Shown here in pieces: positions 9,290 through 35,639 of a DNA stretch of 64,000 nucleotides. The notes under the pieces are model-generated. The model worked only from the letters and a program-made list of their open reading frames with translations, was not told the origin of the DNA and ran no database searches. The translations under genes were made by a program, and so were the position numbers. Positions within the stretch are counted from its first letter, which is position 1; every line of letters begins with the position of its first letter. The DNA lies in NCBI GenBank assembly GCA_963664815.2, contig CAXXHB010000003.1, forward strand, positions 1,600,001 to 1,664,000, written 5' to 3'. The DNA comes from Spirochaetota bacterium. Its GTDB lineage: Bacteria; Spirochaetota; UBA4802; UBA5550.

Positions 9290-10243
9290 GTGCAGAAAAA
9301 TGGCAGTAAAAGTCCGAAGAACAAAAATCAGAATAAAATATGGGATAATATTTCGATAAAAGATCATCCTCTTGATGGTATGGGAAATCCTTCTTATAAA
9401 AAATATGATCCCATATTAAGTGTTTATAAATATTCAGCAGACTATAGGGATCCGGTTCTGGGGAAAATTGATAAATCAGAAAACCTGTTCAGCAAAAAAT
9501 ATAAGTGGAGAATGAAAGGGCTTAGTATAGATTCAAGATTTTTTGCTGTCTGGTCAAATGAGAAAATTTATAAAAACTATTTCAATTCACTTTATAAAAC
9601 AGCAAAAAGTATGCATAACAGGTATAGAGATAGTGATAGTGTTATGGCGGTTGAGCCGGAGGATTATGTTGCTATGACTATAGGTTATTTTATTAAAAGT
9701 ACAGAGAAGTGTCAGCTGGAATATAATAATCTTATAGATAAGATCGGCTATTATAGTCATTACCCCCTTGATGATACATATAAAAGTTCTGAAGAGATAG
9801 GCCTTGGTGTAATGAAAATGTATAATCAAAAGCTGAAGTCTAACTTCACGGATGCTCTGCGAAGACGAGGACCTGTGCCGCAGGGTAATATACTGAACAT
9901 TGTTAACTCCGACCAGTCGTTTACTGATTCCGTAATTTCAATCGAGCAGGAAGTCTCTTCGCTTCCTTACTTGAAAAAAAAAGGTTATGCCGGGGCTGTG
10001 TTTTATTATCTTGCACTTGGTTCCCTTTCCAAAAAGGAGATAGAAATCAGTGTTAAAGAAAAATTTCAGATAGCAGGAAATGATTTTAAATACTGCATTC
10101 AGCGGGCTGTCCATGAAATTAAAAGTGATATAATATACAGGATTTTATCTATTCAGAAGGAAATCTGTAATCATGGTGATATAGAAGTGCTGCTTATCAG
10201 AATTGGAGAGTATCTGAGTTTACAGTATGAAGGAGTTGCCTAA
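9290..10243 (+). CDS. Divergent ECF/sigma-70-like factor (putative)
   Basis: EPEDYVAMTIGYF (~region 2.2 DAEDLVQE), KSNFTDALRRR (~region 2.4 N..IDYLRR), AVFYYLALGSLSKKEI...KYCIQRAVHEIK (~region 4 HTH); GGAGG RBS, GTG start; motif resemblance only. Confidence 0.5.
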   Translation: MQKNGSKSPKNKNQNKIWDNISIKDHPLDGMGNPSYKKYDPILSVYKYSADYRDPVLGKIDKSENLFSKKYKWRMKGLSIDSRFFAVWSNEKIYKNYFNSLYKTAKSMHNRYRDSDSVMAVEPEDYVAMTIGYFIKSTEKCQLEYNNLIDKIGYYSHYPLDDTYKSSEEIGLGVMKMYNQKLKSNFTDALRRRGPVPQGNILNIVNSDQSFTDSVISIEQEVSSLPYLKKKGYAGAVFYYLALGSLSKKEIEISVKEKFQIAGNDFKYCIQRAVHEIKSDIIYRILSIQKEICNHGDIEVLLIRIGEYLSLQYEGVA

Positions 10244-11811
10244 TGGAAAGATATAATGAAGCTGTTGCATCACTTAAAGATACATTTCGAAATACCTTTT
10301 TTTCTGAATATGACCCTTTTAATGCGGGCGGCAGAGATCGTGAAATTATGGAAAGCTTCTACTCTGTTTTGAATAATTTTTTATCAGACATGAGTGTAAC
10401 GGGGAAAAAAGATCTTCTGGACCTGCTTGATAATTCGGAAGAGTTTTCATCTAATAATTCATTTGAGATGGATTTTGATCCGTACTTTATTCTTCAGCTT
10501 GCTGCTGACGGAAATCCCCTCTTTGATTCATTGCCTGATGAAACACTGCGCATGGTTGAGCAGCTGCTGAGATCTGAATCTGAATTTCTTGAAGATCTTT
10601 TTGTCTGTGTCGGTCTGAATAATGTGAATCTGCAGAATGAATATATGCTCCAGATGGCGTTGCCTTCATGGAGTGAAATAATGACGCGGATCTTTTTTGA
10701 AGAGAGGAATATTCTTGATGACCTTAGAGCTCCCGATTCAGTTGCGTCAATGGACCCTTCGGTGATTGTTTCTTTTTATCTTGATAGGGATTTTGATAAA
10801 GAAAAGTATAGTTCCTTTGATTTTTTTAAAGATAACGTTCTCAGGAGAGATTTTGAGAAGGCCGCATATATTATTCCGGGTATTTTTAATTTTATTGCCC
10901 AGAGAATTGCAGATCCGGAAAGCTTTTCTTCTTTCCCGGTTGATTTTAATATAATCAAAGAAGTTCAGCATTATATACTGCTCAAGAGTATTGTGGAGCT
11001 GCTTGTATCAGGATCACTTGCCACTGATGACGGCAAAGCCCTTCTTTCAAGGCTATACCTTATTTTTGCAGCATCTGCCGGAGTTAATGATGATAGCCCC
11101 AACTGGAGCTTTAATGCAGGACTGCTGGAAAAATTGTGTAATAATCCGGTAAGAATTGATTCTCTTAATTCGGTACCGTTTACAAGGATTAACAGGGTTG
11201 TTCTTAATTTTCTGACCTCCGTGGCGTATCTCTGTTCTGATGATGAGGGATTTATTAAATCATGTTCAAAACTTCCTGACAGATATGATGGGGTAGTCGA
11301 GTTGATGAATTCTCTGCATATGCAGGATATTACCAAAGAACGGGAGGCTGATTCTGTTCCGTATACTGCAAGGCTTTTTAATAATTTTACAGATGCAGTT
11401 TCGAGGTTTATGGAATCCGGGCTTCAGAGAGAGATGAAGGTTGTTGTTTTAAGGGAGCCTGCAGTAGCGGTGTTTGGTACTGTCCAGGTGCCGGAGAAAA
11501 AATACACAATAAGCGGAACAATAGGGGAATCCTCTTTCACCGCTAAAATTTCAACAGAACTGATAATGGATGAAAAAGCTATTATGCTTGAACTGGATTT
11601 TGATATTGATACTCCCGATCCGGACGGATATGAAGTTGCTTTATATATTAATTTTAAAGGTGTTAAGAAAAGAATTAACTCAAGGTTATTTAAGGGATCA
11701 GCCTTTCATCGGGTTTATAAGCTTGATCCTATGATTCGTATTTCCTATTCCCTTGAACTTTCCCTGACAGATGGAGAAGAATCCCTTATCCTTTTTTCAG
11801 CGGAGTACTGA
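10243..11811 (+). CDS. Acidic hypothetical protein, candidate anti-sigma / protease substrate
   Basis: TAATG overlap with the sigma-like gene; helical N-terminus and beta-rich ~110-aa C-terminus; function inferred from position only. Confidence 0.75.
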   Translation: MERYNEAVASLKDTFRNTFFSEYDPFNAGGRDREIMESFYSVLNNFLSDMSVTGKKDLLDLLDNSEEFSSNNSFEMDFDPYFILQLAADGNPLFDSLPDETLRMVEQLLRSESEFLEDLFVCVGLNNVNLQNEYMLQMALPSWSEIMTRIFFEERNILDDLRAPDSVASMDPSVIVSFYLDRDFDKEKYSSFDFFKDNVLRRDFEKAAYIIPGIFNFIAQRIADPESFSSFPVDFNIIKEVQHYILLKSIVELLVSGSLATDDGKALLSRLYLIFAASAGVNDDSPNWSFNAGLLEKLCNNPVRIDSLNSVPFTRINRVVLNFLTSVAYLCSDDEGFIKSCSKLPDRYDGVVELMNSLHMQDITKEREADSVPYTARLFNNFTDAVSRFMESGLQREMKVVVLREPAVAVFGTVQVPEKKYTISGTIGESSFTAKISTELIMDEKAIMLELDFDIDTPDPDGYEVALYINFKGVKKRINSRLFKGSAFHRVYKLDPMIRISYSLELSLTDGEESLILFSAEY

Positions 11812-11813
11812 AA

Positions 11814-14800
11814 ATGTTGGTGCTGCGGTTTAAAAAGAAGTCTGACAGAATCGATATTATCGAGTTTTATATTCATAATCAGGGAGATGAACTGAATTCT
11901 ACAGACAGTATAGATATATCAATGGGGGGCACCGGGTGGGCCGGTTATCTTGCTTCAATCTGGAAATGCAAACAGATTATTGAGGGGGCAGTTCTTTCCG
12001 GAAAATTTACTAAAGAGATTCTGAATAAAATGCTGCCGCAGTTTGAAGTGCGGAAGCTGTTTCCGCATCTTGCAGAGAGGAGCGATGGACCGCTCAGTGT
12101 CAGGGATATCTGGCTTAAAAGTGTAGTCTCATCAAACCAGCCCCAGAGAATGGTTCTTCAGGTTGATTCGGATACAGGAATGGTACCATGGGAGTATGGA
12201 GATCTTTCTGAAAATGAGTATTTTTTCAGCAGGCATATACTGACACGACTCCCTTCCGGCATATCTTATACAAAATTGAAGAAACTCGCCAGTTCTGATA
12301 ATATAAATTTTAATCGCGGAATAAGAATATTCCCTGTACTTGCAGATGTAGGGGAGGTAAAATATTTTTCTGAAACGAAAAAATTTATAGATAAGATGAC
12401 TTCTGATCTTGGACAGGAGTATTTTGATGATGACTATAATAATTCATACACCCTGTTTTTGAAAAGTTTCTGCAGTTATCCGGTTGTACATCTTATCTGT
12501 CATGGACCCGGACTTGAAAACAGCTCTAATGCGATTCAGGTAGACCATAGATTTATACCGGTCAGAGATTTTATTAATAACCTGATTGAGCAGTATGTTA
12601 TAAGGAATGAATTTCCCGCTCTTCTCATCCTTTCAGTTTGCGGAGGCGGTTCAGCTATAACTCCTGATCTGATAGCTGAACTCTTTGAAAGGACTTCTGT
12701 CAGTAATATCATTGTATCTTTTTTTTCAATTCCGGTTAATAATACTACTTTTGATTTCTATACAGAATTATACAGAAATATAATTCATAAAGGGATGGCT
12801 GTTTCAGAGGCCTTTCACAAGGCTGTCAATGACCCGTTTAATCCTATAGGAGCAATACACCAGCTCTGGGGAAACCCTGATGTAAAATTTACCCGCATGA
12901 CTGCTGTAGACCAAAATACTGCCGTGAAGGTTCATGATACTGCAACAGCATCGATCTCCGATGCTATAATGGCAAACAAGGTAATGGACCTTATGAAGTC
13001 AAACTCCTTTGACGAGGCATCTGCGGTTATTGACGGCATAAACGATGATGAGACGCAGCAGAAGCTTAGATCAATGAGCAGCAACCTTGAAGCGGATGTT
13101 GCAGAACTTCTGGATAAAGCCCGTTTATCGAGCAGGGATGTTTACACAAATATATTTAAGGAAGGGAGTATCATTGACGGTATTGCTGAATTGGGACTGT
13201 GGCCCGATGGAGAGATATATCACATTGCGTGCGGATTTTATGATTATATAAATAAGGAGAAAAGTATAAGGATCAGGATCCCGGAGGACCAGAGCAGCCA
13301 AAATATTGAACGCCTCAGCTCCCTTGTCAATTCAGACAGCTATAATTCGGCAGCAGGTCTTGAGAAATACTATTACTGTTCAGACTACAGGCTTTTCGGG
13401 GAGAATTTTTCAATATTTTATATCTGCGGCGAAATGCCCGTGGGTGAAAATATTAATTCAGATTCTTTGAAGGAGATTCTGCAGGGGATGTCCCCGGAAG
13501 AGAAAATAGGGATTGCTGTAAAAACCGCTTCTGATCTGTGCAGCGCAATGAATCTTTTTCATAAAAATGATCTGTATTTCCAGACGATTGAACCTTCAAA
13601 AGTATATATAAATCTGAACGGACCTTCTGCCGAGTCCATATATATTGCAGACGCTATGTTTTGTGCTGTCACGGAGGATAAAATAAGCGGCCTTCCTGAA
13701 AACGATGAATGTATATCTGATAGATTAATTGTTTCTAACATGATGGATGTTGCAGGGATAGTGTTTCATGATATTCTTGGTTATGAAGGAGACCTGGGGT
13801 CTCCGTTAAAACCGGGAGTAGCTCTGGTGATTGATGATCATCGCAATCTTATCCGCTGTTATTTTATGAATGAAGAAGGTTATGACAGGGTAATCTCTGA
13901 TAGAAGATTTCATGCATTACTTAAGCTTACTGACTGTAGAAAAGCGAGCAGATACCGGAGTGCGGGTGAAGCGGCTATAATCCTTAAAGGGGGGAATACG
14001 GTTTTTATTAATGAAATGAAAGAAACCGTTATGGCAGGTTCCCGGTTATTATATCTTATGGACAGATATGAAGATCCTGTTACTGTTGATGATATATGCA
14101 ATAATTTCGGGAGGACTGTGCTTCTTGATGAACTGCTGAAAAAAGGGTCGGATATGGCCTCTCCGAAGGTAGTAATAGTTAATGCGATGAACAGGCATGA
14201 TTTTTATCGTTGCCTTGAACCCTCTAAAACTTCCGGTGATCCATTTTTTATAGTTCTTCTTAAAAGTGGAATTAATATTATGATTCTTGATATTAACGAT
14301 GTGTTTGATGTCGATGAGAAAGCAGTGAGATACTATCATTTTTTTATGACATATATGAAAAGATATCTTGAACAGCCGTCGAGACCGTCTGTAGTAATGC
14401 TTTATTCTAACGCGGTTTACAGTTTTTTTAAAGATAAAAATCTGCTCAAGCATATGAAGATTTTATTTAATTCACCATATGATATTCATGATTATTATAG
14501 AGAAATTCACAATTCATCCCTGGCTTCCGAAATTCAGCTTGATGAAAATGAGATAAATGAAATTGCAGCGAATTGCATAGGACTGACATTACGCGAAGTC
14601 AAATACGCCATGGGTTATATTCTATCCTGCGATCTGATGAATTCAGTTTCGGGTGACGGTTTTAAGAGCTACCTGAATGAATACCGCATGAAAACAATGC
14701 TTTCAGGATCGAGGATTCTCAGGTTATATACTCCAAAGGATGATGTTTACGGGGGGTATCATGGTCTGGATGATTTCATAACTTCAGTCAGGATAAGTCT

Positions 14801-15539
14801 TGATTATAACTTCAGCATCAATTTCAAGTCATCTATTTTTACCGGGTTTTCCGGGACAGGGAAAAAATCCGCTGTGTCGTATCTGGTAAAAAGGCTGGAA
14901 ATCCCGGCTGTTTCGCTGGATATTTCGGAGATATTTGCAAACGGTTTAGACTCCAATCCAGTAGGCCTGCTAAGGTATGCTCTGGCACTTGTAAAACAGA
15001 TGCAGCCGTGTATATTGATAATTAACAGGTTTATAAAAGATATCATAGTTGCTTCAGAGAATTCATCAGCTCTGAAACTTATAATGGGGACTCTTCTCAC
15101 ATGGCTTCAGGATATCGGAAATACAAATATTCTGGTGTTTGCCCATGATTCTGTTAACAGTATAGCCGATGCAGAATCTCTTAATCATGAATTTACAAGA
15201 TCCGGACGATTTACGGAAAAATTTTTTTTTAATTACCCGTCTATTGACTCCGAAAAAGAGATTCTCGGATTATATGCCGGGTCTCTCGGTGTTAAGATAA
15301 GCGATGAAGAAGCAGTTGCCGTATTATCGGAAGAACAGATGTCCGGTTGTCTGACTCCTGCTGATATCCGTTATACAATGAATGAAACAGCGCTCAGGTA
15401 TATAAAGAATGAGAATGGTACAGTACCGGATCTTTTCAGGGGTGTTGTGAAGAGGGGGTTATATCTCAGGTCTGATAGAAATTATAATGCTGCACTGGCT
15501 GGAAGAATGAAAGATTCCGGATATACTATATTGAATTAA
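11814..15539 (+). CDS. CHAT (caspase/HetF-like) peptidase - pseudokinase - degenerate AAA+ fusion protein
   Basis: CHAT: VPWEY, VHLICHG (His230), LILSVC (Cys276), LWGNP. Kinase-like: LFHKNDLYFQTIEPSKVYI, YIADAM, SRYRSAGEA. AAA+: GFSGTGKK, ILIINRF (no DE), TRSGRF. Confidence 0.8.
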   Translation: MLVLRFKKKSDRIDIIEFYIHNQGDELNSTDSIDISMGGTGWAGYLASIWKCKQIIEGAVLSGKFTKEILNKMLPQFEVRKLFPHLAERSDGPLSVRDIWLKSVVSSNQPQRMVLQVDSDTGMVPWEYGDLSENEYFFSRHILTRLPSGISYTKLKKLASSDNINFNRGIRIFPVLADVGEVKYFSETKKFIDKMTSDLGQEYFDDDYNNSYTLFLKSFCSYPVVHLICHGPGLENSSNAIQVDHRFIPVRDFINNLIEQYVIRNEFPALLILSVCGGGSAITPDLIAELFERTSVSNIIVSFFSIPVNNTTFDFYTELYRNIIHKGMAVSEAFHKAVNDPFNPIGAIHQLWGNPDVKFTRMTAVDQNTAVKVHDTATASISDAIMANKVMDLMKSNSFDEASAVIDGINDDETQQKLRSMSSNLEADVAELLDKARLSSRDVYTNIFKEGSIIDGIAELGLWPDGEIYHIACGFYDYINKEKSIRIRIPEDQSSQNIERLSSLVNSDSYNSAAGLEKYYYCSDYRLFGENFSIFYICGEMPVGENINSDSLKEILQGMSPEEKIGIAVKTASDLCSAMNLFHKNDLYFQTIEPSKVYINLNGPSAESIYIADAMFCAVTEDKISGLPENDECISDRLIVSNMMDVAGIVFHDILGYEGDLGSPLKPGVALVIDDHRNLIRCYFMNEEGYDRVISDRRFHALLKLTDCRKASRYRSAGEAAIILKGGNTVFINEMKETVMAGSRLLYLMDRYEDPVTVDDICNNFGRTVLLDELLKKGSDMASPKVVIVNAMNRHDFYRCLEPSKTSGDPFFIVLLKSGINIMILDINDVFDVDEKAVRYYHFFMTYMKRYLEQPSRPSVVMLYSNAVYSFFKDKNLLKHMKILFNSPYDIHDYYREIHNSSLASEIQLDENEINEIAANCIGLTLREVKYAMGYILSCDLMNSVSGDGFKSYLNEYRMKTMLSGSRILRLYTPKDDVYGGYHGLDDFITSVRISLDYNFSINFKSSIFTGFSGTGKKSAVSYLVKRLEIPAVSLDISEIFANGLDSNPVGLLRYALALVKQMQPCILIINRFIKDIIVASENSSALKLIMGTLLTWLQDIGNTNILVFAHDSVNSIADAESLNHEFTRSGRFTEKFFFNYPSIDSEKEILGLYAGSLGVKISDEEAVAVLSEEQMSGCLTPADIRYTMNETALRYIKNENGTVPDLFRGVVKRGLYLRSDRNYNAALAGRMKDSGYTILN

Positions 15540-15552
15540 CAAGGAGAATGAT

Positions 15553-17388
15553 ATGTCTGCGCAGGAACAGGTACTCAAGGAGATAAAAAGTCACATTATA
15601 GCAGGGTTCCGTTTTATATATGTTTCGACATCTGAGGAGACTGAGTTTATAGACAGGATGAAAGATTCGGTTGAATCTGATTCTGCATTCGGTTCTCTTG
15701 TGCTTTTTGTTGATTACGACGAGATAACAACAATGTCCAGAATTTACGGAACAAATACAAAAAAAATTATAGATGACTATGGCTGGCCTATAAAGAATTT
15801 CAAGTATGAATGCAGCGATATCCAGAAAAAGGACTCGGCAACAATGGACAGGTATAATGGTATCAGCCACCCGCTTGAGATGGCGTTTAATCTTGAGAAC
15901 CTTAACCCTGTACTTGACAAAATCAATCAGTCTGAATTTCAGAGTGCCAAAGACAAGATCCGATTTATATTTTTTATCAAGGACGCTCACCTGCAGTTTT
16001 TTATCCGAACAAGAAATTTTAAAAGAATTGAAGATTTTTTTGAAAAGAGGGGATATAACCGTGCTGATTTTTTCTTTGTTCTTATCTCATCATTTCCGGG
16101 AAGTATTATTCCTGAAGATTTTTCCCGTTACGTTGTGAGTTTTGATTATCCGCTGCCGGGAATGGATACTATGAGAAAAATCATTGCAGAAAAGATTTTT
16201 GCAGGGAGCGAAAAGATTAATGAAGAGACAGATGTGCTGGTTGACAATTTTGCAAGAGCCGGAGTGGGTCTCTCCGAGAGGGAGTTCAGGCTCTCTTTAA
16301 ACCTTGCTATGCAGGAGGGGGAGGGCAAGCTCACCCTGAACACACTGGGTACCATACATAATCAGAAGTCACAGATACTGAAAACATCAAATCAGTTTCT
16401 TGAATATATTACAGACAGCACCATTTATGGAGGAGATGAAACTTTTAAGGATATAGGCGGAATGGACCAGCTCAAAGACTGGATAAAATTAAGGAAACTA
16501 CTTATTAACCCATCGGAGAAACTTGCATTTAACGAGGAACAACTTGCAATTCTCAACAGACTTGATAAACCCAAGGGCCTGCTGCTCTTTGGTATTTCCG
16601 GGGGAGGGAAATCCCTCATGGTACGTCACATAGCCCGACTATTCAAAGTACCTCTCCTACGTCTTGATATAGGGCGTATTTATGGCCAGTATGTAGGGCA
16701 GTCTGAAAGAAATATCAGGGAAACCATACGGCTTGCAGAGGCTATGTCTCCATGTGTATTATGGATTGATGAAATTGAGAAAGGGTTTGCCGGATCTCAG
16801 GGAAGCGGCGACAGCGGAACCTCCTCCAGGGTCTTCGGTTCATTTTTAACATGGATGCAGGAAAAAAAGGCTATGGTTTTTGTTGTGGCCACGGCAAATA
16901 ATATAACTTCAATACCACCTGAAATGACAAGGATGGGGCGTTTTGATGCACTCTTCTTCGTCCCGCTTCCTGATCTGGAGGGGCGTAAGGAGATATTTAA
17001 AATACATCTCCGTAAATATATTCCTTTAACAGTGATGCCGGATGAAAATGTTGACAGACTTGCTGCAGATGTTTTTGAAACCGGATCCAATAGCGAAAAT
17101 TTAAGATGCATCACCGGTGCGGAGATTGAACAGTGTGTTAAAAACGCGATCCTTGTTAATCTTCATTCATCTGTTTCATCAGGTGATTCTAATCTTGAAT
17201 CTGCAATCAGGGAACAATTCATGATTGTCACACCTATGTACAAAAACCCGGTATTAAACGAACAATACAGAGGTCTGTGCAGATGGGCGGAATCGCGGGC
17301 AATAATTGCGGGAGCTTATGATGATAACGATGATGACGCTCTAAATAGTTTCGGGAGGGATCCCGGAGCCGGCAGATTGAATCATTAA
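15553..17388 (+). CDS. AAA+ ATPase, Ycf46-like
   Basis: DIGGMDQLKDW, Walker A GISGGGKS, YVGQSE, Walker B LWIDEIEK, ATAN, RMGRFD; AAGGAG RBS. Confidence 0.92.
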   Translation: MSAQEQVLKEIKSHIIAGFRFIYVSTSEETEFIDRMKDSVESDSAFGSLVLFVDYDEITTMSRIYGTNTKKIIDDYGWPIKNFKYECSDIQKKDSATMDRYNGISHPLEMAFNLENLNPVLDKINQSEFQSAKDKIRFIFFIKDAHLQFFIRTRNFKRIEDFFEKRGYNRADFFFVLISSFPGSIIPEDFSRYVVSFDYPLPGMDTMRKIIAEKIFAGSEKINEETDVLVDNFARAGVGLSEREFRLSLNLAMQEGEGKLTLNTLGTIHNQKSQILKTSNQFLEYITDSTIYGGDETFKDIGGMDQLKDWIKLRKLLINPSEKLAFNEEQLAILNRLDKPKGLLLFGISGGGKSLMVRHIARLFKVPLLRLDIGRIYGQYVGQSERNIRETIRLAEAMSPCVLWIDEIEKGFAGSQGSGDSGTSSRVFGSFLTWMQEKKAMVFVVATANNITSIPPEMTRMGRFDALFFVPLPDLEGRKEIFKIHLRKYIPLTVMPDENVDRLAADVFETGSNSENLRCITGAEIEQCVKNAILVNLHSSVSSGDSNLESAIREQFMIVTPMYKNPVLNEQYRGLCRWAESRAIIAGAYDDNDDDALNSFGRDPGAGRLNH

Positions 17389-17402
17389 GGATAAGTCTGA
17401 TT

Positions 17403-18242
17403 ATGGATAGCTGGAAATATAATTTATACCGGACAGCATTTTCCTCTATTTTTATGAGGGCTGATTATAATTTAGAATATGACAGCTACAGGTATTTTCT
17501 TGATACATTCGGGAGTCTGAACCATGAGATGTATCTGTTATTGTGGGATAACCTTCTCCGTTACGTATATTTAAAAGATGAAAAATATGATATGTTTCTT
17601 TATGGAGAACTTTCACCCGTTTCCTATTCATTAAAATGGCATATGGATTATCTTCAAAACCCTGAGAAAAAAACCAGATCCAGATGCCGGTTCAGAAAAA
17701 GGCGGAATCCCCCTTATATGGAAATTATGAATTCGATATCTGAAACTCCAAATGTAGTCGATTATTTTTTTATAAATTCTATCTTCAGGAAATCAGACTC
17801 TCAATTTATTAAAGATGTGCTATTAAGTAATGACAAGCCTGCAAAATCCCTGGTCCAGTTTATCCGGAATAATCGTCTTCTTATTGCAGGAACACCTGCT
17901 GATAATTATCTTAAAGAATATGAAGCATCTCTCAATGCCGGCAGAAAAGATTCAGATAAAAGGAAAGAAAAAAATAACAATAAATGTGAGGATGTGAATC
18001 ATCCGAAAGTTTATCTATACAATCCGCCCGATGTGAATAATATAAAACAGCTTGTTCAATCCGGTATGGCAACAGTATCTATTCAGGAGGCTTTTTCTGT
18101 TTTTATCTCTTCCCAAATCTTGAGCCTCGATAACTTTTTTAAAAATGATATTATTAAAATGTTTAATCCGGTTTATTTTCCCGAAACTGAAAAAAAATTT
18201 CTGAAACACTATGCTGTTTCAGCAGAAGTTTCGTCTAAGTAG
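17403..18242 (+). CDS. Hypothetical protein (operon member)
   Basis: 279-aa ORF 14 bp after the AAA+ gene, with AAGGA RBS. Confidence 0.75.
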   Translation: MDSWKYNLYRTAFSSIFMRADYNLEYDSYRYFLDTFGSLNHEMYLLLWDNLLRYVYLKDEKYDMFLYGELSPVSYSLKWHMDYLQNPEKKTRSRCRFRKRRNPPYMEIMNSISETPNVVDYFFINSIFRKSDSQFIKDVLLSNDKPAKSLVQFIRNNRLLIAGTPADNYLKEYEASLNAGRKDSDKRKEKNNNKCEDVNHPKVYLYNPPDVNNIKQLVQSGMATVSIQEAFSVFISSQILSLDNFFKNDIIKMFNPVYFPETEKKFLKHYAVSAEVSSK

Positions 18243-18316
18243 ATTTAATATAGGGTAAATATCCGGCTGTTCAGGATCAGGCCGGTTTGCAATGATAAAT
18301 GATTTAAGGGGGAATT

Positions 18317-25380: not shown

Positions 25381-25635
25381 ATGCCTCATAGTAATGAACC
25401 GGTTTATTATGACAGAAGCCGTATCGCCTCTATGTTGGATGAAGCGGCTGAGATAACTAATGTTCTGGTCTCTGACGCTGATATTATGTTGGATCAGTTT
25501 AATAGAATAACTAATAGAAAAAAGCCGTGGTATGAGGGTAATATACAGGGAGAGGGGGAATCCGGTTTGTTTGAAAATATACTGAGTTTTATTAAAAAGA
25601 TGCTGTTTCCGGTTAAATCCGGAGGTGGAAAATAA
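25381..25635 (+). CDS. Small hypothetical protein
   Basis: AAGGA RBS; 2 bp after the previous stop; its end carries the GGAGG RBS of the next gene. Confidence 0.7.
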   Translation: MPHSNEPVYYDRSRIASMLDEAAEITNVLVSDADIMLDQFNRITNRKKPWYEGNIQGEGESGLFENILSFIKKMLFPVKSGGGK

Positions 25636-25640
25636 TAATT

Positions 25641-27416: not shown

Positions 27417-30400
27417 GTATGCAGAAAAACCACAGTAATAAAAGATTTTTACCATATATGCTTATTTCCGGATTACGTATACCTTATTTGAAGATTCTTC
27501 TGTTTATTTCTCTAATTATTGTTTTAATAACAATCTCTCTCTCTTTTGCTTTGAATTTTAAAGATTCAGAAATTCATGACGGCCGTATGTTTACAAAATA
27601 TTCAGACAGAAAAATTTTTAAGTTACAGGCTGACTCTACTGATAAAGTTTACTTTACATCGAGATCCGGAGGATTTATATATAATAAGCCGGCCGGGAGT
27701 CTGAAAGAATATAATATAGGATCCTCCGGGCACTTTGCGGTTCCGGTTAAATTTTTTAAAAGCAGCAACGGACTGTTTATTCTCTGCAGTGACGGTTCTG
27801 TGTATGATGCTGATAAGAATAGTTTTTTATTGAAACATCAACCTTTATTATCTTCAGATGGCGGAGGGAAGCTTCTGTACGAGGATAGTGAATATAGATA
27901 TGTACACCTTAAAGGGGGAGGGCTGGTTGTTCAGAATAAGGGGAACGGGAGTATAACCCCTATGGATATATCGCATTATATTAAACCTGAACGGCTGAAT
28001 TCTTCTTTTAATAAAGAAAAAGAATACTTAGGATCGATACTTTTCCCCGAGGATGGACTCCTTGCTTTCCAGATTGATAATAAAAGTCCGGGTATTTATA
28101 AAGACTTTAATTCTGAAATTATAAAAAAGCTGAATCTGATATCGCCTCTGCAGATGGATAAATATTATCCAGTTGGAGAGGTTGTCAGACAGTCATCAGT
28201 AAGGCATAATGTACGGGATATAACTGAATTGAATAAGGCTAAATCTTTTATTCAGTCTCTTGTATTCAGCGACTGCCAGGACGCCAGGATAAAAAAATTT
28301 ACAACAATTGATGATACTGTAGTAATTGCAGGGAGCAGCGGTATTAGTATTTTTGCGAAAAACGGTTCTTCTCTTGAAGACAGAAATCCTTATAAAAAAT
28401 TAAATCTTGATCTGTTTAAAGATGGTTTTAATTCCGCTGTTGAAGATTTTTCTCTTGATTATAAGAACTGTTCCGGAATTGCCAGGGTTTCAAACGATAT
28501 TCTTCTTTATAATCTGCCGGGTTCTAAAGGGTGGGAAAATCTTTTTTATAATTCTGAGTTTAAGGGACTTCCCGATACCCGTTTTGCATCCTATAGTAAG
28601 GAATCAGGTATTTTTACCGCTATTTCTGATAGATCTATAGGATTATATGATATTCATAAGAGAAAGTGGATTTCAGCTCCGGTAACATACAATTCTTCTG
28701 ATAATTCAAATAATAAGGATATACTGGTAAAGGATACAACAATTTATAAAAACAGAATTTATCTGATCTGCCGTAAGGGGAGTTCGACAAATTTTCTGTT
28801 TACCGCGGATCTTTCAGAGTTTTATAAGGCTCTTTCCGGAGAGGTATCTTTTTCAACAGCTACAAAGAGCTTTTCTCTTGAAGAGGATACAGTTGTTATC
28901 CCGGGGACAGAACCGGTTTTTATAGATAAGAGGTACGGATTTTACAGATGGAATAATAATATTCTCGGGAAAAGAGGATGTAAAGATGGAAGTGCAGATA
29001 TATGCGGCGGTGATCCCGGTCAAATAAAAGAGTGTTATGAAAAAGATGGTATCCTCTATCTTCTGACAACAAGAGGTTTTTTATTTTCCTATGATTCAGG
29101 GAAAAGATCTCTAACCATGATAGAGAATGATGTAATAAAGTTTCTAAATGAAAAAGCAGAGGTTTTTCAGACCAGAGATAAGGATCAGGATTATGTAAGT
29201 ATAAAGAGTGATGAAAAAGGGGAGAAAGGGAATAAATATATAAGGCATACTCTTCTCGGAAGGATAAATGACATCTTTACGGCTAATAATTTTTTATTTG
29301 CTCTTTCGGATAATTATCTCTGGCGGTATTCATTTGAGGAAAAGAAATTTCTTTTTTTCTTTAATCCGCTTCCGAAAGAGGTTAACAGGAACGGAATATT
29401 CTGTTCATCCGGAAAGAACCTTTTTATCTTTGACCCGGTAAACGGGAAGTTGTTCAGATATGATGCGGATCTTCGTTCATGGAGTGAACGTTCATACAAT
29501 ATCACTTTTGATGAAAAGTATATTATTAATTCAGTCAGGGACATATACGTGACCGATAAGGGGATTTTGTATGTATTAATGAGCGGTTCGATTAATGGGG
29601 AATCCTGTCATAGCATTGTTGTAAGTATAGATACAAATCTGGGGAAAGCGGATTTTATTTACAGAGGTAACAATATTGAGAAACTGCCGCGCGATATTGT
29701 CAGGGCTGTGAAGGAGGGGGACACTCTCCTTATACTTACTGCAGGTGGAAAATTAATGCTCTTCTCTTCCGGCATAGGATACTGGTATACATTGAAGGAT
29801 GAAAGAGTAAAGGATTTTGCATGTTCAGGAAGCAACCTTGCAGTCCTTTCTAATGAAGGAGTGCTTAATCTATATTATATAAAGTCTGGTACAGCAGTTT
29901 TTGTAAGTGCAATAAATAATGTGAACAGACTTTTTGACTTGAAGGGTGATGAAATTATTTTTGGAAAGGGAAATTCCATTGTTACAGGGAAATATACAGG
30001 AACGGAAATACAGGATAAAAAGATTTTATTCAGCGGCGGGATCAGAAGTGATAACCCAGATGAAATAACAGTATCGGCACTGAAAGGGGAGGAGGATAAG
30101 CTTTGGCATATAAACTGCGGTGAGGATAGATTTTACTATTACAATCTTTCTGCGGGGAATATTGAGCGGTGTGGAACCTCGTCTGTATATGATACAGAAA
30201 AATATAAATTTTTTGATGGAGGTTCTGCAGTTTACAGATTTGACGGGCGAAATATTGTTACAACATATATGTTTATTGATAATGCAGTAAAAAAGTCAAA
30301 AGAAATAAAGATTGAGAATTCACGTCATCTTTCATTCCTCTCATCAGCTGATTATAAACAGACCGGTTTTCTGAATATCAGGGGAGATCACGATAAAACC

Positions 30401-32788
30401 AGCGGCATTGATATCTACATGAATGTTATGGATTCACCGGAATTTAATCCTGCAGTTTCTATAGATACACCTGTACTTTCTGATTACGATGATACCCGTA
30501 CAGGATCTCTGATTGTATTTGACGGTTTTTTTAAACATAATCTGGAAACACTGCAGACACCGGAAAAGGAAGGCTATAATTCTATACTTATATTTCCTGG
30601 ACGGGAGATACTGATAAATCTTAAAACAATGCAGAGCTGTATGGTAGCCCTCAAGGATTCAATGTATAATGACAGAGGGAATATCGACTCTATTAAAAAT
30701 AAAGGAATCTTTCTGGTCAACGGATTTTATTATTACATTAATAAAGATGGATATATAGAAAAGTATAGTGGAGAGCTTAAGGGTGATTTTTTTTCAGTGA
30801 TTGTGATGCAGATAAGATCTTATTTTGCAAGACCTGATGATAAACTATGTTCAATGATACTCGGTTTTTACAGGGAGGTGCAGAAGAATTACCGCAGCAT
30901 AAAATTTTCTGCAGACAATAATACACCCGTGGTTTCAGCAGGAAATTATACCCTTAATATAAAAAGGTCCACGGATGGTTACAGAGTGAATTGGAGTGAA
31001 TCCATTGTAGATAACCCGAGGATTTTAAATTATGCCGGGAAGCAGAATGCTGCCGGGGGGTTGAATTCATTCTCTTTCGGCGAGATATCACGTACGCTGA
31101 CCGGATCAGATGAGGGCTTCAAGTTTTCATGTGATGTTCTGCGTGATCTGGTTACGGATGATCGCGGGTTAGTTGTTGATTCAGCCGGGGGATTCAGGCT
31201 GATTCCATATAATAACCTCTATTCCGTCATTGATGAGAAGAGCTTCTCGATGGATGACTTCAGAAAGATCAGGGAGGAGAAGCATAATTTTGAAAAATCT
31301 GCAATCAACAGATTTTTAACAGATTGGTTTGACAGAGATACTTTTATTAACAGGGCATATGCGGGTAGTTTTAAAGTAAATGGCGACAGGCCGGAATTAC
31401 GCATGGAAGGCCCGGATGAAAAAATAAAATCTGTTTATAAACTGACAGACAGAAGAAATGGATCTCTTCTTGATATAGTTAACAGCTACAGCAGCGGTAA
31501 TGTAACATCAGCAATAAAGTCAGATTACACGGATAGCCCATGGAATGGGAAATGTTTTTTTATAGATAACACTATGGCCATGACATTCAAGGGGGGGAGT
31601 ATTATTGCAAAGTTTCTCTCCCGCGAAAATAAAGAGAAATATATATATGCTGAAAATCCGGAAGCCGGGGTTTATGATCTCCCTGAATATTGTCTGTCCC
31701 TGCCTGTTTCGGAATCAGGAGGGAAGAGATTTTATTCAGACGATGGAGGGCTCTTTTTTATTGATGGAGGGATGAATAGAGTTTATGAAAAGAATATAAT
31801 CTGGAATATAGCAGATTATCCCAGGTTTGATATGTCTATAAACAAAAATCTGACTGACGGCAGGGTTGTATTTACCTGTTCAGGGAGAGAGATAAAGAAC
31901 GTTCTTAATGATTACCGTTTTTTTACAGATTCATTCATTGGCGGCGGTGTTTTTAGTTTTAATAACAGGGAGTATATTTATCTTGCAGGTAAAGATATGG
32001 TCCAGGTCGGCATTGACGAAAATAATAAATTTAAAATGGAAGGATGCTATATATACTCATCGGAGAATGAGAAACCGGCGGTCAGAAATAATTTTCTTTA
32101 TCTGCTGCGTGATGGGATGGCAAGGAGCCTGTCAACACTGAATTCCGGAAAGATCGGGTGGAGTAGTGATTCTGTAAATTTCAGAGAGATAGATCTTAAA
32201 ATAGTTCCAGATATTATATTCAGTCCAGGTAAGAGCAGACCGGAGATAGCAGATAAGACTATCGGGTTTTCTGAAAAAACGCCTTTTTTTATAAACGGGA
32301 GGGATCCCTCTTCTTATATATACAATAACCGGTTTTTCTTTGATTCATGCACGGGAATAACTCCATGGAATCATTATGAAAACATGCATTCATTTATACA
32401 GTATACAGGAACAATGGGTATAGAATATGAAATAGATTACCGGAGTGACAAAGAATTGAGGATAAAAAATGTTATTGAATCCGCAGCACCATTGACTGCA
32501 CAGGAAAATGACTACCCCGGGGTCAGGTTAAGAACGGATTGGAGCAGCAGTCTCTATGGTATGATAACAGATATTCTTTGTTCGGACGGGGAATATCTTT
32601 ACTGTTCATGCACAAACAGCAGGGATGAAATTGCGCGGATATCATTTAAAGATGGTTCCTTGTCAATGATCCGAATGAGCAAAAAAGACCTTTCTGAAAA
32701 AAATTCAAATGCTCTCGGTTCTGCGGAGCCGTTTGGATGGCGTCTGAAGAATAACAGGATATTTTATTTAAAGAGCGGCAGATTATGA
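27413..32788 (+). CDS. Giant (1791 aa) membrane-anchored/exported beta-rich protein, probable multi-beta-propeller
   Basis: N-terminal hydrophobic helix ILLFISLIIVLITISLSFAL; many blade-like strands (GILYLLT, NLFIFDP, YLWRYS); recurring (R/K)FFxD-type motif in the C-terminal third. Confidence 0.8.
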   Translation: MSMQKNHSNKRFLPYMLISGLRIPYLKILLFISLIIVLITISLSFALNFKDSEIHDGRMFTKYSDRKIFKLQADSTDKVYFTSRSGGFIYNKPAGSLKEYNIGSSGHFAVPVKFFKSSNGLFILCSDGSVYDADKNSFLLKHQPLLSSDGGGKLLYEDSEYRYVHLKGGGLVVQNKGNGSITPMDISHYIKPERLNSSFNKEKEYLGSILFPEDGLLAFQIDNKSPGIYKDFNSEIIKKLNLISPLQMDKYYPVGEVVRQSSVRHNVRDITELNKAKSFIQSLVFSDCQDARIKKFTTIDDTVVIAGSSGISIFAKNGSSLEDRNPYKKLNLDLFKDGFNSAVEDFSLDYKNCSGIARVSNDILLYNLPGSKGWENLFYNSEFKGLPDTRFASYSKESGIFTAISDRSIGLYDIHKRKWISAPVTYNSSDNSNNKDILVKDTTIYKNRIYLICRKGSSTNFLFTADLSEFYKALSGEVSFSTATKSFSLEEDTVVIPGTEPVFIDKRYGFYRWNNNILGKRGCKDGSADICGGDPGQIKECYEKDGILYLLTTRGFLFSYDSGKRSLTMIENDVIKFLNEKAEVFQTRDKDQDYVSIKSDEKGEKGNKYIRHTLLGRINDIFTANNFLFALSDNYLWRYSFEEKKFLFFFNPLPKEVNRNGIFCSSGKNLFIFDPVNGKLFRYDADLRSWSERSYNITFDEKYIINSVRDIYVTDKGILYVLMSGSINGESCHSIVVSIDTNLGKADFIYRGNNIEKLPRDIVRAVKEGDTLLILTAGGKLMLFSSGIGYWYTLKDERVKDFACSGSNLAVLSNEGVLNLYYIKSGTAVFVSAINNVNRLFDLKGDEIIFGKGNSIVTGKYTGTEIQDKKILFSGGIRSDNPDEITVSALKGEEDKLWHINCGEDRFYYYNLSAGNIERCGTSSVYDTEKYKFFDGGSAVYRFDGRNIVTTYMFIDNAVKKSKEIKIENSRHLSFLSSADYKQTGFLNIRGDHDKTSGIDIYMNVMDSPEFNPAVSIDTPVLSDYDDTRTGSLIVFDGFFKHNLETLQTPEKEGYNSILIFPGREILINLKTMQSCMVALKDSMYNDRGNIDSIKNKGIFLVNGFYYYINKDGYIEKYSGELKGDFFSVIVMQIRSYFARPDDKLCSMILGFYREVQKNYRSIKFSADNNTPVVSAGNYTLNIKRSTDGYRVNWSESIVDNPRILNYAGKQNAAGGLNSFSFGEISRTLTGSDEGFKFSCDVLRDLVTDDRGLVVDSAGGFRLIPYNNLYSVIDEKSFSMDDFRKIREEKHNFEKSAINRFLTDWFDRDTFINRAYAGSFKVNGDRPELRMEGPDEKIKSVYKLTDRRNGSLLDIVNSYSSGNVTSAIKSDYTDSPWNGKCFFIDNTMAMTFKGGSIIAKFLSRENKEKYIYAENPEAGVYDLPEYCLSLPVSESGGKRFYSDDGGLFFIDGGMNRVYEKNIIWNIADYPRFDMSINKNLTDGRVVFTCSGREIKNVLNDYRFFTDSFIGGGVFSFNNREYIYLAGKDMVQVGIDENNKFKMEGCYIYSSENEKPAVRNNFLYLLRDGMARSLSTLNSGKIGWSSDSVNFREIDLKIVPDIIFSPGKSRPEIADKTIGFSEKTPFFINGRDPSSYIYNNRFFFDSCTGITPWNHYENMHSFIQYTGTMGIEYEIDYRSDKELRIKNVIESAAPLTAQENDYPGVRLRTDWSSSLYGMITDILCSDGEYLYCSCTNSRDEIARISFKDGSLSMIRMSKKDLSEKNSNALGSAEPFGWRLKNNRIFYLKSGRL

Positions 32789-33753
32789 ATGTAAAAGAAA
32801 TGGCAGCCTTCTTTATACCATCAATACTCACTATTGCAGTATTGATGTATCTGCATGATACCGGTACGGCATGCTGGATTGTTTTTCTGGTGTCTTCGTT
32901 TTTTACTCTTGTTATGCTGAAGATGATATATGATGATGACTCCAGCTTTCTTCGTTTATCGGTCTTTGCCGGTTTTCTTTTTTTTAATCTTTCTTCAGAA
33001 TATTTCGTTATGCTTGATCCTGACAGGATACTTGTTTTTACATCGGTAATATTTTTTATGGTTCAGTTTATCCTTATATCTTTATCAGTTCTCAGACATG
33101 ATTATAAGGAGATGGAGACACATCGTGAAGCGGTCAGGAATATCATTGATAAACCTGTGAAAACTGTTGATCAGGGTTCTATTCCTGAACCTGAACTTTT
33201 TTTTATTCATATCCCCGGTTCTGCGTTGCTGATACTGATATTTCTTGTTATAGGGGGGGTGAGCACAACACCTCTGAGAATTATTGCAGGAAATATTGTT
33301 TACATTTATATATTCCGTTTTACCGGAAAAATGGATGGTTCATCAGAATTCTATACTTACGGGAAAATGATTCCCGCCGCCGGTTTATACCTGATGTTAT
33401 TTCTAGTGTCATATTTTATTTTTTTCACTACAGGCCTGGCAATCTCCGGTTCGGATAATACAATAGTTCATATAATCGTCATTCTTCTATCATCCTTCAT
33501 TTCAGCTCTGACATGCGCATTTGTTAATTATATTTCAGTGCGTTTTTCCGGCGGGGATGGTATGCTAAAGCTTATAATTAATCATGCGATTGCCATTTCA
33601 TTTATTATAGCTATACCGGTTCTAAAGGATTTGTTGTTCTTTGAATTTAAACTGTTATGGATATTGTCATTTATCCCGTTTCTGGTTTTATGCGGTTATA
33701 TTGCAGACCATATTGTAAAATCCAGACAGGAAAAAAAATCTGTATCTGAATAG
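32785..33753 (+). CDS. Polytopic membrane protein (~10 TM)
   Basis: Highly hydrophobic; ATGA overlap with the upstream gene. Confidence 0.8.
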   Translation: MNVKEMAAFFIPSILTIAVLMYLHDTGTACWIVFLVSSFFTLVMLKMIYDDDSSFLRLSVFAGFLFFNLSSEYFVMLDPDRILVFTSVIFFMVQFILISLSVLRHDYKEMETHREAVRNIIDKPVKTVDQGSIPEPELFFIHIPGSALLILIFLVIGGVSTTPLRIIAGNIVYIYIFRFTGKMDGSSEFYTYGKMIPAAGLYLMLFLVSYFIFFTTGLAISGSDNTIVHIIVILLSSFISALTCAFVNYISVRFSGGDGMLKLIINHAIAISFIIAIPVLKDLLFFEFKLLWILSFIPFLVLCGYIADHIVKSRQEKKSVSE

Positions 33754-33786
33754 CATATTTGAATTTTAAGATAGGAGGGATATTTA

Positions 33787-34992
33787 GTGGAAGAATTTAT
33801 CGGTGTTATAGTGGGAGGTATAATAATTCTGCTGCTTGCACAACAATTTCTGGCTTGGCTTCTGGCTTTTTCCGCCGCCAGGTTTGTTATTTTTCTGGTT
33901 CTCTCCACTGGTCCTGCAATCGTTTCACTGTGGAATCAGGGAGGGATCAGTAAAATTCCAAGAAAACCATGGTATATGATTGAAATAATAGTTTATGCTT
34001 TACTTGTTGTAAAATGGGTTTCCGGCAGTATTGATTTCAGTAAAAGCTATACGGGGAACCTTATATTTTTTCTTCTTTTCTTTTTACTTTTTCATCTGGT
34101 TATAATAATTATAAGTGATAAAAAAAATAAAGATTATTTACAGTTGTATGCGGCTGTTTCTCCATTTTTTATGACTGGCGTATCTGTAATTTTTTTTGGG
34201 GTAGGTGAGTATAAAGATATATTCAGTAATGAAGTGACCGTTGAAAGAGTTTTATTAATAGTACTGGTACCTCTTGCTATATCACTTGTACTTTTTAGTA
34301 TTTTTCTTGCATTGAAGTTTTTTGTAATGAAGATTATTAAATTTACCAGAATAGTTTTTTCTTTTATTTTTAAAAAGATACCCCTACCGCCTTCAGAACA
34401 ATGGGAATCAGGCATGAATATACCACCAGAGAAGATAGTAAGGATATCACCGCAGTTCATTTTAATCAGTTCAGTTTTTTTCCTTATTTTGTTATCATTT
34501 TTTGTTTTTAATCCGGTATCTTTTCTTTTTAATAAATATATAAACCGCAGCGATGAATGGCTTATATATAACGATTATTCTATTACTCCTGTGACCATGG
34601 CTTCTCTGGGAAATTTTAAAATTCCCCGTACAGTGAAAAATAAGGTTTTGAAGGTTTTACCGCAGAAACAGGCAAAGCCGGATAATTTAAACAGTCTTTC
34701 GGATGACTTCGATATAAAAGATAAAAGGGCCGTTAAACCCCTTAATGAACTGACAAAAAAATATAAAAAAGATAAACATACAGGCCTTAAAGTTGATAAA
34801 AATACAGATTTTTTAAAGATGTTTGATCAGTATGGAAAGAAAAAGAGTTCCGGTATAGATAATAAAAGCCTGGATGACATCCTGAAGATGCGTAATAAAC
34901 TCATAAATCCTGAAGTGAAATGGGAAAATATAAATAAATTAAAATATAATAAACTGAAGATAAGTGAAGATGATCTATCCAAACCGCTATAA
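33787..34992 (+). CDS. Polytopic membrane protein with Lys-rich soluble C-terminus
   Basis: AGGAGG RBS, GTG start; ~7 TM then a basic tail. Confidence 0.78.
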   Translation: MEEFIGVIVGGIIILLLAQQFLAWLLAFSAARFVIFLVLSTGPAIVSLWNQGGISKIPRKPWYMIEIIVYALLVVKWVSGSIDFSKSYTGNLIFFLLFFLLFHLVIIIISDKKNKDYLQLYAAVSPFFMTGVSVIFFGVGEYKDIFSNEVTVERVLLIVLVPLAISLVLFSIFLALKFFVMKIIKFTRIVFSFIFKKIPLPPSEQWESGMNIPPEKIVRISPQFILISSVFFLILLSFFVFNPVSFLFNKYINRSDEWLIYNDYSITPVTMASLGNFKIPRTVKNKVLKVLPQKQAKPDNLNSLSDDFDIKDKRAVKPLNELTKKYKKDKHTGLKVDKNTDFLKMFDQYGKKKSSGIDNKSLDDILKMRNKLINPEVKWENINKLKYNKLKISEDDLSKPL

Positions 34993-35602
34993 CAGCTTTG
35001 AAAATTCCAGGCTCAATGTGGCGTCTATTATTCACGGCTCTATGTGCAACGGACCCGGACCGCATACTGTGATACATCTCCAGGGGTGCAGGTTCAGATG
35101 TGAAGGCTGCTTTAACGCTGAACTTCAGCGGGAAACCGTGGTAAAACTTATTCATCCCGATGAGATAGTACGGAATTTTCAATCTTATTCCGGGAATTTG
35201 TCCGGGGTTGTGATTAGCGGTGGAGAACCGCTTCTTCAGCCGGTCGGGGTAGGACTTCTTCTTTCAGGTCTGAAGAATGCCGGATTACGGACAGTTCTAT
35301 ATTCCGGTTACAATATAGAAGAGATAATTTTTAACGGCCTGTATGATATGGTAAAAATGGCAGATCTGCTTATATGCGGCAGGTATGTTAAGGGTCTGGA
35401 AATTGAAAGTTTTCCATATACATCGGGCAAGGCTATGATGTTTTTTTCTTCTGCTTATTCTCAGGAAGAGTTTGAGGCAATGGACTGGTCAAAAAAATAT
35501 GAGATACGTATTACGCCTGAAGGAGCAGTGTTTCTCGGATTTCCGCCTGCTGCGGAGATTGAAAATATGCGGAAACTGTTCGGTTCAGGATTGATGGAAT
35601 AG
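34964..35602 (+). CDS. Radical SAM protein, NrdG/PflA activase-like
   Basis: NGPG, QGCRFRCEGCFN (CxxxCxxC), ISGGEP, YSGY, DLLICGRY. Confidence 0.9.
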   Translation: MKMIYPNRYNSFENSRLNVASIIHGSMCNGPGPHTVIHLQGCRFRCEGCFNAELQRETVVKLIHPDEIVRNFQSYSGNLSGVVISGGEPLLQPVGVGLLLSGLKNAGLRTVLYSGYNIEEIIFNGLYDMVKMADLLICGRYVKGLEIESFPYTSGKAMMFFSSAYSQEEFEAMDWSKKYEIRITPEGAVFLGFPPAAEIENMRKLFGSGLME

Positions 35603-35639
35603 TAAAAGGCAGCATACAGGTACTGATGCTGCCTTTTAC
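35602..35639. terminator. Bidirectional intrinsic terminator ending the large operon
   Basis: Perfect 14-bp stem GTAAAAGGCAGCAT / ATGCTGCCTTTTAC between convergent genes. Confidence 0.85.

Follow-up and report, generated by a model that had tools for sequence, protein, structure and literature searches.

Organization of the gene cluster

The 64,000-nucleotide (nt) window analysed here, which comprises positions 1,600,001 to 1,664,000 (forward strand) of contig CAXXHB010000003.1 in the Spirochaetota bacterium assembly GCA_963664815.2, contains at positions 9290-35602 of its + strand a cluster of 17 co-oriented open reading frames (ORFs), designated g01 to g17 (Table 1). An initial annotation, made from the sequence alone, had viewed the cluster as a strongly diverged relative of the FtsH ternary conflict systems, extended by a sigma/anti-sigma switch, a caspase-like fusion protein and a membrane module.

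Table 1. Genes of the cluster and features at its borders, in window coordinates (aa, amino acids; TM, transmembrane)
Feature	Length (aa)	Coordinates	Strand	Description	Position or remark
DDE transposase		7856-8968	-	split by an in-frame stop	upstream of operon; multi-copy insertion sequence
Leader		8969-9289	+	AT-rich; putative promoter region	5' of g01
g01	317	9290-10243	+	basic; no family assigned	no Pfam match at E ≤ 10
g02	522	10243-11811	+	acidic; no family assigned	start overlaps g01 stop
g03	1241	11814-15539	+	CHAT/caspase-like (~111-337) + kinase-like (~490-620) + degenerate classical AAA (1008-1140)	
g04	611	15553-17388	+	Ycf46-like classical AAA	intact Walker A (GISGGGKS) and Walker B (DE)
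g05	279	17403-18242	+	no family assigned	
g06	172	18317-18835	+	no family assigned	
g07	565	18836-20533	+	FtsH-ternary-type ATPase	P-loop-less N-domain + active AAA (GPPGNSKT, DE)
g08	101	20549-20854	+	small acidic protein	
g09	413	20871-22112	+	MoxR AAA+	P-loop GKPGVAKS
g10	471	22105-23520	+		479 aa from ATG at 22081
g11	621	23513-25378	+	no family assigned	
g12	84	25381-25635	+	small protein	
g13	591	25641-27416	+	four N-terminal TM segments + soluble domain	
g14	1791	27413-32788	+	one N-terminal TM anchor + giant extracytoplasmic part	
g15	322	32785-33753	+	8 TM segments	
g16	401	33787-34992	+	6 TM segments	Lys-rich tail
g17	212	34964-35602	+	small radical SAM enzyme	Fer4_12, CX3CX2C
Hairpin		35605-35615 / 35626-35636	.	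perfect 11-bp hairpin, 10-nt loop	between g17 and convergent ORF 35662-35988

The genes are tightly packed. Fourteen of the 16 junctions either overlap (six, by 1 to 32 nt) or leave a gap of 0-16 nt (eight), with wider gaps of 74 and 33 nt preceding g06 and g16, respectively. The g01 start is a GTG preceded by GGAGG 6 nt upstream, while the likelier starts of g10 (22105) and g11 (23513) create the overlaps ATGGATAA and ATGTATAA. No strong terminators were found between the 17 genes, which are predicted to form one operon.

At 9068-9108 in the leader, a hairpin of 17 pairs followed by a T-run insulates the operon against the upstream insertion sequence (IS). The ‘perfect terminator' proposed in the initial annotation for the other end of the operon is confirmed in part, in that the 11-bp hairpin after the g17 stop is perfect but has only about four T and was not called by a consensus terminator scan. 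Besides fragments, the genome contains six full-length copies of the IS that are at least 96% identical (the window copy included) and one that is 84% identical; its place beside the operon may thus be incidental. The GC content of the cluster (37.55%) is near that of the genome (37.78%), lying at the 43.6th percentile of 26-kb windows, so that its composition does not mark it as foreign. On either side lie ordinary accessory genes that showed no conservation in five genomes of the same genus, so island borders could not be drawn. They include a cyclic nucleotide monophosphate (cNMP)-binding protein upstream (6235-6852, + strand) and a 797-aa Sel1/TPR repeat protein downstream (38326-40719, - strand).

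Comparison with Pfam and NCBIfam identified classical AAA domains in g03 (weak), g04 and g07, AAA_5/bpMoxR in g09 and Fer4_12/Radical_SAM in g17, leaving 12 of the 17 proteins without any family match. A relaxed Pfam scan (E ≤ 10) of all ORFs lacking a family match, together with the unexplained N-terminal parts of g03, g04 and g07, added just one sub-threshold CHAT match, on g03. The features that the initial annotation had listed for the locus, namely 17 co-oriented and closely spaced genes, an IS upstream, four AAA+ modules (g03, g04, g07 and g09) that include a Ycf46-like and a MoxR ATPase, an NrdG-like radical S-adenosylmethionine (SAM) enzyme, three membrane proteins (g13, g15 and g16) and a 1791-aa protein, were all recovered; the radical SAM enzyme has a CX3CX2C motif and the 1791-aa protein a single N-terminal TM segment. 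TM segments were counted by simple hydropathy.

Relationship of g07, g09 and g17 to FtsH ternary systems

The comparison draws on a computational survey of vWA-MoxR systems, in which the FtsH ternary system is subsystem 3, with a simple radical-SAM subtype (Kaur, Burroughs, Iyer, Aravind 2020, eLife 9:e52696, PMC7159879). The same survey describes a P-loop variant, GXXXTAKS, for FtsH and beta-propeller MoxRs (PMC7159879), and the P-loop of g09, GKPGVAKS, is near this variant. A word-indexed search with g09 returned 52 proteins, of which four (P0002-P0005, all metagenomic) are close, with 41-55% BLAST identity, and the others are near 30% identity. A pattern scan of 185,579 species genomes matched 593 stretches, 579 of which were confirmed as MoxR relatives, and the best 80 loci were kept. 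No close g09 relative was present in the species genomes, the best segments being 27-41% identical (best 80 of 579). When all 17 proteins were compared with the 80 MoxR loci by tblastn, a g07-like AAA protein was found in 15 loci and a g17-like radical SAM enzyme in 11.

The identity of these reference loci is apparent from their domains and gene order. Pfam identified ivWA in four of the loci (L006, L007, L013 and L059), ivWA-helical_N in L006 and fvmX5 in L007. In Candidatus Uabimicrobium amorphum (L007) the gene row reads FtsH (AAA + M41), a 916-aa protein, bpMoxR, ivWA, radical SAM, a 99-aa protein, a 300-aa protein and fvmX5. Their make-up is that of the simple subtype (PMC7159879), and they are accordingly genuine FtsH ternary systems. 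The g07 protein aligns with the FtsH component of L006 (BLASTP E 4e-32) in a collinear manner, residues 43-463 on 23-430, such that the P-loop-less N-domain is included. Similarly, g17 matches the radical SAM enzyme of L006 with 90.5 bits and 31% identity, compared with 31 bits for its best paralogue in its own genome. Although g17 is NrdG-like, it scores only 69 bits against the NCBIfam NrdG model, which has a cut-off of 126.1.

A FastTree phylogeny of 81 MoxRs comprised g09, its four close relatives, 13 of the 15 FtsH-linked loci, 62 of the 65 other loci and the genome's own RavA-like protein as outgroup; loci with a MoxR ORF outside 280-520 aa had been dropped. Ten FtsH-linked loci, together with five loci on contigs of 2.4-8.8 kb, form the sister group of the g09 clade (support 0.963), and all 13 FtsH-linked loci fall inside the next clade (support 0.97), a large remaining group of 53 loci lying apart. 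Judged by this tree, g09 belongs to the clade of FtsH-linked MoxRs. At the level of sequence comparison g07, g09 and g17 are homologous to components of FtsH ternary systems, their nearest genomic relatives residing in loci with ivWA, ivWA-helical_N or fvmX5 domains, consistent with the strongly diverged relationship proposed initially.

A predicted fusion of CHAT-like, kinase-like and AAA domains in g03

Residues 1-990 of g03 were used as query in an exhaustive phmmer scan of 1.84 billion representatives, standing for about 15 billion proteins. Its own protein aside, g03 has only two homologues in this collection, P0055 (1246 aa, 40% identity, aligned over residues 4-988) and P0056 (1221 aa, 26% identity). 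In the three-way alignment His226, Leu227, His230, Gly231, Pro232, Val275, Cys276 and Gly277 are invariant. When residues 111-337 of this family were compared by hhalign with 14 CHAT domains from related genomes, the probability was 92.3% (E 5e-7), and His230 and Cys276 of g03 aligned to the CHAT catalytic dyad.

Residues ~490-620 of g03 aligned, from helix C to DFG, with a kinase profile (probability 82%, E 1e-5) built from 13 sequences, 16 PF00069 domains having been fetched, of which three lacked an open frame. HRD is replaced by FQT in this region, the Asp at the DFG position (Asp613) is invariant and the N-lobe did not align. The middle domain is kinase-like and probably inactive. In the C-terminal AAA domain the Walker A motif reads GTGKK, GTGKR and GTDPA across the three proteins and the Asp-Glu pair of Walker B reads NR, DR and DG, so that the catalytic Glu is absent from all three; the arginine-finger region HEFTRxGRF is kept (TRSGRF in g03). 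These comparisons support, at the profile level, a putative architecture of a CHAT/caspase-like domain followed by a kinase-like domain and a dead classical AAA domain. The fusion proposed in the initial annotation, including Cys276 as a catalytic residue, therefore has profile-level support and no confident structure.

The genome contains one canonical CHAT protein, a 987-aa open frame (Pfam E 2e-57) within G000:C3:3360171-3369798. It lies ~7 kb from two classical AAA domains (C3:3367732-3368142 and 3369310-3369798) that are tblastn matches of g07, and this region may be another CHAT + AAA locus.

Rarity of the cluster

A search of 40 related genomes with g10 as query did not detect the cluster. 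Word-indexed searches with g10 and with g03 residues 1-990 returned only their own proteins; as the index missed P0055, a full-length g03 homologue with 40% identity, the lack of a g10 homologue in that search is weak evidence of absence. Metagenome scans, using either the alignment of close MoxRs or P0004 alone, and two scans of viral contigs found nothing, while g03 searched against plasmids and g09 against phages matched only in part, at the AAA and MoxR domains. The two sets of relatives described above meet at one point, in that P0055, the g03 homologue, and P0003, a homologue of g09, are each encoded on one Logan contig only, the recorded length of which is 21,098 bp in both cases. P0056 is encoded on a Logan contig of 19,202 bp.

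As the initial annotation had expected, the cluster does not correspond to a catalogued system. PADLOC-DB 2.0 gave only weak generic matches to IetA, TRIP13, RtcR and pVip and no complete catalogued system. In the literature searched no description of this architecture was found, although the supplement Figure 1-source data 1 of PMC7159879 may list similar variants.

Radical SAM enzymes as partners of AAA+ ATPases

The g04 protein displays 32-38% identity, over 67-77% of its length, to plasmid-encoded ‘AAA family ATPases'. Four contexts of such matches were inspected, and a DUF2997 gene was present in three. A 4Fe-4S-cluster protein was also located within 5 kb in three, two of these proteins being g17-like by tblastn. 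The radical SAM enzyme g17 has plasmid relatives as well (24-32% identity). Its best plasmid match belongs to an operon on Paenibacillus polymyxa pPPM1a with the order AAA, DUF1257, DUF2997 and radical SAM (L142, NC_017543.1 212946-215813), the second lies on another P. polymyxa plasmid, and the third, on Calothrix pCAL6303.02 (L143, NC_019728.1), is two genes from an 848-aa AAA ATPase. The g17-type enzyme thus recurs as a partner of AAA+ ATPases from several clades, two of which, g04 and g07, are present here.

The Calothrix genes are arranged as Hsp70, a 1316-aa TPR protein, the g17-like radical SAM enzyme, a hypothetical protein and the 848-aa AAA ATPase. A compact operon of a Ycf46-like AAA protein, DUF2997 and a small 4Fe-4S ‘single cluster' radical SAM enzyme was observed on plasmids of Paenibacillus, Bacillus cereus and Paenarthrobacter (L142, L138 and L140), with DUF1257 as an additional member in Paenibacillus. 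No description of this compact operon as a system was found in the literature searched. Pfam (E ≤ 10) gave no match to DUF1257 or DUF2997 in the 17-gene operon. The locus points to a wider, undescribed theme in which small NrdG-like radical SAM enzymes are associated with AAA+ ATPases of several clades.

As g04-like AAA proteins and g17-like enzymes form their own plasmid module with DUF1257 and DUF2997, the cluster might consist of two or three modules that function independently and came to lie side by side by chance, one with the CHAT fusion and the Ycf46-like AAA protein, another a reduced form of the FtsH-MoxR core and a third combining the membrane proteins with the radical SAM enzyme. 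The 74-nt and 33-nt gaps could hold internal promoters, and most of the genes lack relatives in the reference FtsH ternary loci. Against this view, however, the close junctions between the genes and the lack of a strong terminator among them speak for a single unit, the radical SAM gene and its AAA partners are located at opposite ends of the cluster, and homologues of g03 and g09 appear linked on the 21,098-bp contig of another organism. Chance assembly is therefore regarded as improbable.

The membrane module and the g01/g02 pair

The four membrane proteins, g13 to g16, are translationally coupled to the rest of the operon and, as g17 is a component of the system located at its far end, their genes are bracketed within it. 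The nearest ESM Atlas neighbours of g14 are Reg_prop/PorZ propeller clusters, with scores of 0.87-0.88 that lie under the 0.9 mark. A blade-like motif, defined post hoc, occurs 13 times in g14 compared with 3.4 ± 1.8 times (maximum 8) in 500 shuffles. A beta-propeller fold for g14 is, at this stage, a lead only. Searches of PDB sequences gave no match for g01 and, for g03 and g14, only generic AAA matches or nothing.

The presence of this module raises the possibility that the operon serves the assembly or quality control of an envelope structure rather than immunity. The MoxR and AAA unfoldases, together with the radical SAM enzyme, would be responsible for the maturation, insertion or turnover of g14 and its membrane partners, with the CHAT-like domain acting as a processing protease. 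Such a role would fit a locus in which four of the 17 genes, including the outward-facing 1791-aa g14, encode translationally coupled membrane proteins, and in which the GC content is native and the flanks are ordinary accessory genes. ATPases of the MoxR family are known as complex-assembly chaperones, examples being listed in PMC7159879. The absence of the cluster from the 40 related genomes (g10 query), together with its extreme rarity in the databases, nevertheless fits accessory conflict genes better, and the recognisable core is common to systems that lack such membrane genes. A function in envelope assembly is thus considered unlikely.

The initial annotation also described g01 as a sigma-like protein. 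This label is not supported, as g01 had no Pfam match at E ≤ 10, the Sigma70_r2 model matched 14 places in the genome, none of which was g01, and hhalign comparison with profiles built from sigma factors of this genome gave a probability of at most 0.5%. The related proposal, that a sigma/anti-sigma pair, g01/g02, is released by the caspase-like protease to give a transcriptional output, has in its favour a faint resemblance at most, in that the best, insignificant hhalign stretch of g01 (residues 236-281) falls on region 4 of extracytoplasmic function (ECF) sigma factors. It has to contend with the lack of a Sigma70 domain in Pfam at E ≤ 10, a Sigma70_r2 model that bypasses g01, hhalign probabilities that do not exceed 0.5% for g01 and 1.2% for g02, and the lack of a PDB sequence match, and such a switch is highly improbable.

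Interpretation of the cluster

The cluster is interpreted, with a probability of roughly 0.55, as a rare branch of the FtsH-type MoxR ternary conflict systems (simple radical-SAM subtype) that has diverged and greatly expanded. The two parts of this interpretation differ in strength. Within it, descent from or kinship with FtsH ternary systems is likely, while a function in defence is tentative, falling a little short of an even chance.

A number of observations weigh against this interpretation. Pfam detected neither vWA or ivWA nor fvmX or bpX in any of the 17 ORFs, down to E ≤ 10 for those lacking a family match, and the membership in vWA or fvmX families that had initially been anticipated was not borne out. 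The g10 protein (471 aa) occupies the slot after MoxR that is held in the reference loci by a helical-N + ivWA protein of 415-475 aa. However, hhalign against an alignment of eight ivWA sequences gave probabilities of 0.2% for g10 and 0.1% for g11. The AlphaFold2 (AF2) model of g10, which is of low confidence (predicted local distance difference test, pLDDT, 32.5), contains helices at residues 10-183 followed by a mixed alpha/beta region, a predicted pattern that is compatible with, and no proof of, the helical-N + ivWA layout; the ESM Atlas offered nothing usable for g10 (best score 0.80). M41 peptidase was not detected in g07, which ends before it, but is present in all four reference FtsH components scanned, including those of L006, L007 and L013, although PMC7159879 does not list this domain as defining for FtsH ternary systems. 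Twelve of the 17 proteins had no tblastn match in any of the 80 related MoxR loci. Similarly, none of the 11 unassigned proteins exceeded 5% probability in hhalign comparisons with 10 ORF families conserved in the 15 FtsH-linked loci, families among which were the small neighbour of the radical SAM gene and the ~1000-1100-aa protein encoded between FtsH and MoxR; neither g08 nor g12 matched the family of 99-143 aa that adjoins the radical SAM gene in these loci. Furthermore, as ordinary RavA-like genes score above the Pfam cut-off for bpMoxR (PF20030) in all 41 related genomes and in 12 of 14 control genomes, the bpMoxR match of g09 is, on its own, not diagnostic of a ternary conflict system.

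Other points on this side of the argument concern g03 and the setting of the operon. The Pfam CHAT model (PF12770) matches g03 with E 0.016 and 15.1 bits, below its cut-off of 24, and does not match P0055 or P0056. An AF2 model of g03 residues 1-395 is of low confidence (pLDDT 39.6), and a fold search of the PDB with it returned noise (best E 0.08). There is no recognisable defence island around the cluster. Finally, the linkage between g03 and g09, which seems to be conserved once, in a clearly different organism, speaks for the interpretation, but the placement of P0055 and P0003 on one contig is deduced from the equal size of 21,098 bp.

If the cluster is an offshoot of the FtsH ternary systems, the likely role of its products would be defence against, or conflict with, invading elements, and a working model can be outlined. 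The membrane proteins g13, g15 and g16, together with the giant outward-facing g14, would sense at, or anchor the complex to, the cell envelope. The MoxR g09, with g10 in place of a vWA co-chaperone, and the two active AAA unfoldases may govern the assembly of a large complex. Docking of the inactive AAA domain of g03 on or in the rings could allow ATP-driven remodelling to switch on the caspase-like protease, the likely effector. The sensing of envelope or phage attack and the cell-death output suggested in the initial annotation are likewise hypothetical. The radical SAM enzyme g17 may modify a protein of the system or a small peptide, g08 and g12 being candidates; a modification of this kind is proposed for the simple FtsH ternary subtype in PMC7159879.

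It is also conceivable, if doubtful, that the operon encodes a distinct signalling protease machine. In such a device an envelope sensor based on the giant, propeller-like g14 would drive a mixed AAA+ ring in which the dead AAA domain of g03 sits among active g04 and/or g07 subunits. Remodelling of the ring would free the caspase-like protease, with the pseudokinase as an allosteric switch, resulting in a transmembrane ‘apoptosome-like' apparatus that operates without a vWA partner.

Comparison with known systems

The interpretation of the cluster as a diverged FtsH ternary system can be judged against the simple subtype itself. Features held in common are a g09 MoxR with an AKS-type P-loop from the FtsH-linked clade, a g07 that combines an inactive N-domain with an active AAA domain, a small Fer4_12 radical SAM enzyme (g17), and a MoxR gene that is followed by one for a ~470-aa protein in the helical-N + ivWA slot. 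By contrast, ivWA and fvmX were not detected here, g07 lacks M41 and the ~1000-1100-aa protein between FtsH and MoxR has no counterpart. The locus contains, in addition, the CHAT-kinase-like-AAA fusion, the Ycf46-like AAA protein, four membrane proteins and several orphans, amounting to 17 genes compared with ~6-8 in the reference loci.

According to PMC7159879, FtsH ternary systems of the complex subtype encode an effector with caspase-like peptidase activity beside FtsH and MoxR. The present cluster resembles this subtype in its probable caspase-like peptidase and in a number of lineage-specific proteins, which point to a large complex of many subunits. It differs in that a beta-propeller-vWA fusion and Ubl, E1, E2, RING and JAB genes were not detected (EAD1 was not searched for), and in the fusion of the caspase-like domain to pseudokinase-like and inactive AAA domains. 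The initial annotation had considered the architecture to be undescribed. While no description was found, a caspase-like effector is already known from the complex subtype, and this element is therefore less new than was supposed.

The plasmid operons of Bacillales and Actinomycetota that encode a Ycf46-like AAA protein, DUF1257, DUF2997 and a radical SAM enzyme share homologues of g04 and g17 with the cluster and differ from it in the two DUF families, which were not detected here. A more distant resemblance exists to IetAS, in which a classical AAA ATPase is paired with a protease. The PADLOC IetA model weakly matches g04 (E 6e-17) and g07 (E 2e-25). In NCBIfam, however, the IteA scores are 59.9 and 78.2 bits compared with a cut-off of 510, there is no S8 protease, and the likeness is generic to the AAA domain.

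In the literature searched, only the 2020 prediction uses the phrase ‘FtsH ternary', and an experimental test was not found; the class is thus known from computation only. Relative to that class, the new elements here are the lack of a vWA signature and of M41, the CHAT-kinase-like-dead-AAA fusion, the Ycf46-like AAA protein, the four-protein membrane module and the 12 proteins without a family match. Should g03 prove to be the effector, His230 and Cys276 would provide a clean genetic handle on the gating of a bacterial caspase-like protease by AAA+ ATPases, a form of control relevant to how regulated cell death originated. The comparison as a whole suggests that the MoxR/FtsH-type/radical-SAM core can lose its vWA signature and M41 peptidase while gaining a g03-type fusion of caspase-like, pseudokinase and dead AAA domains, an AAA protein of a second family and a set of membrane proteins.

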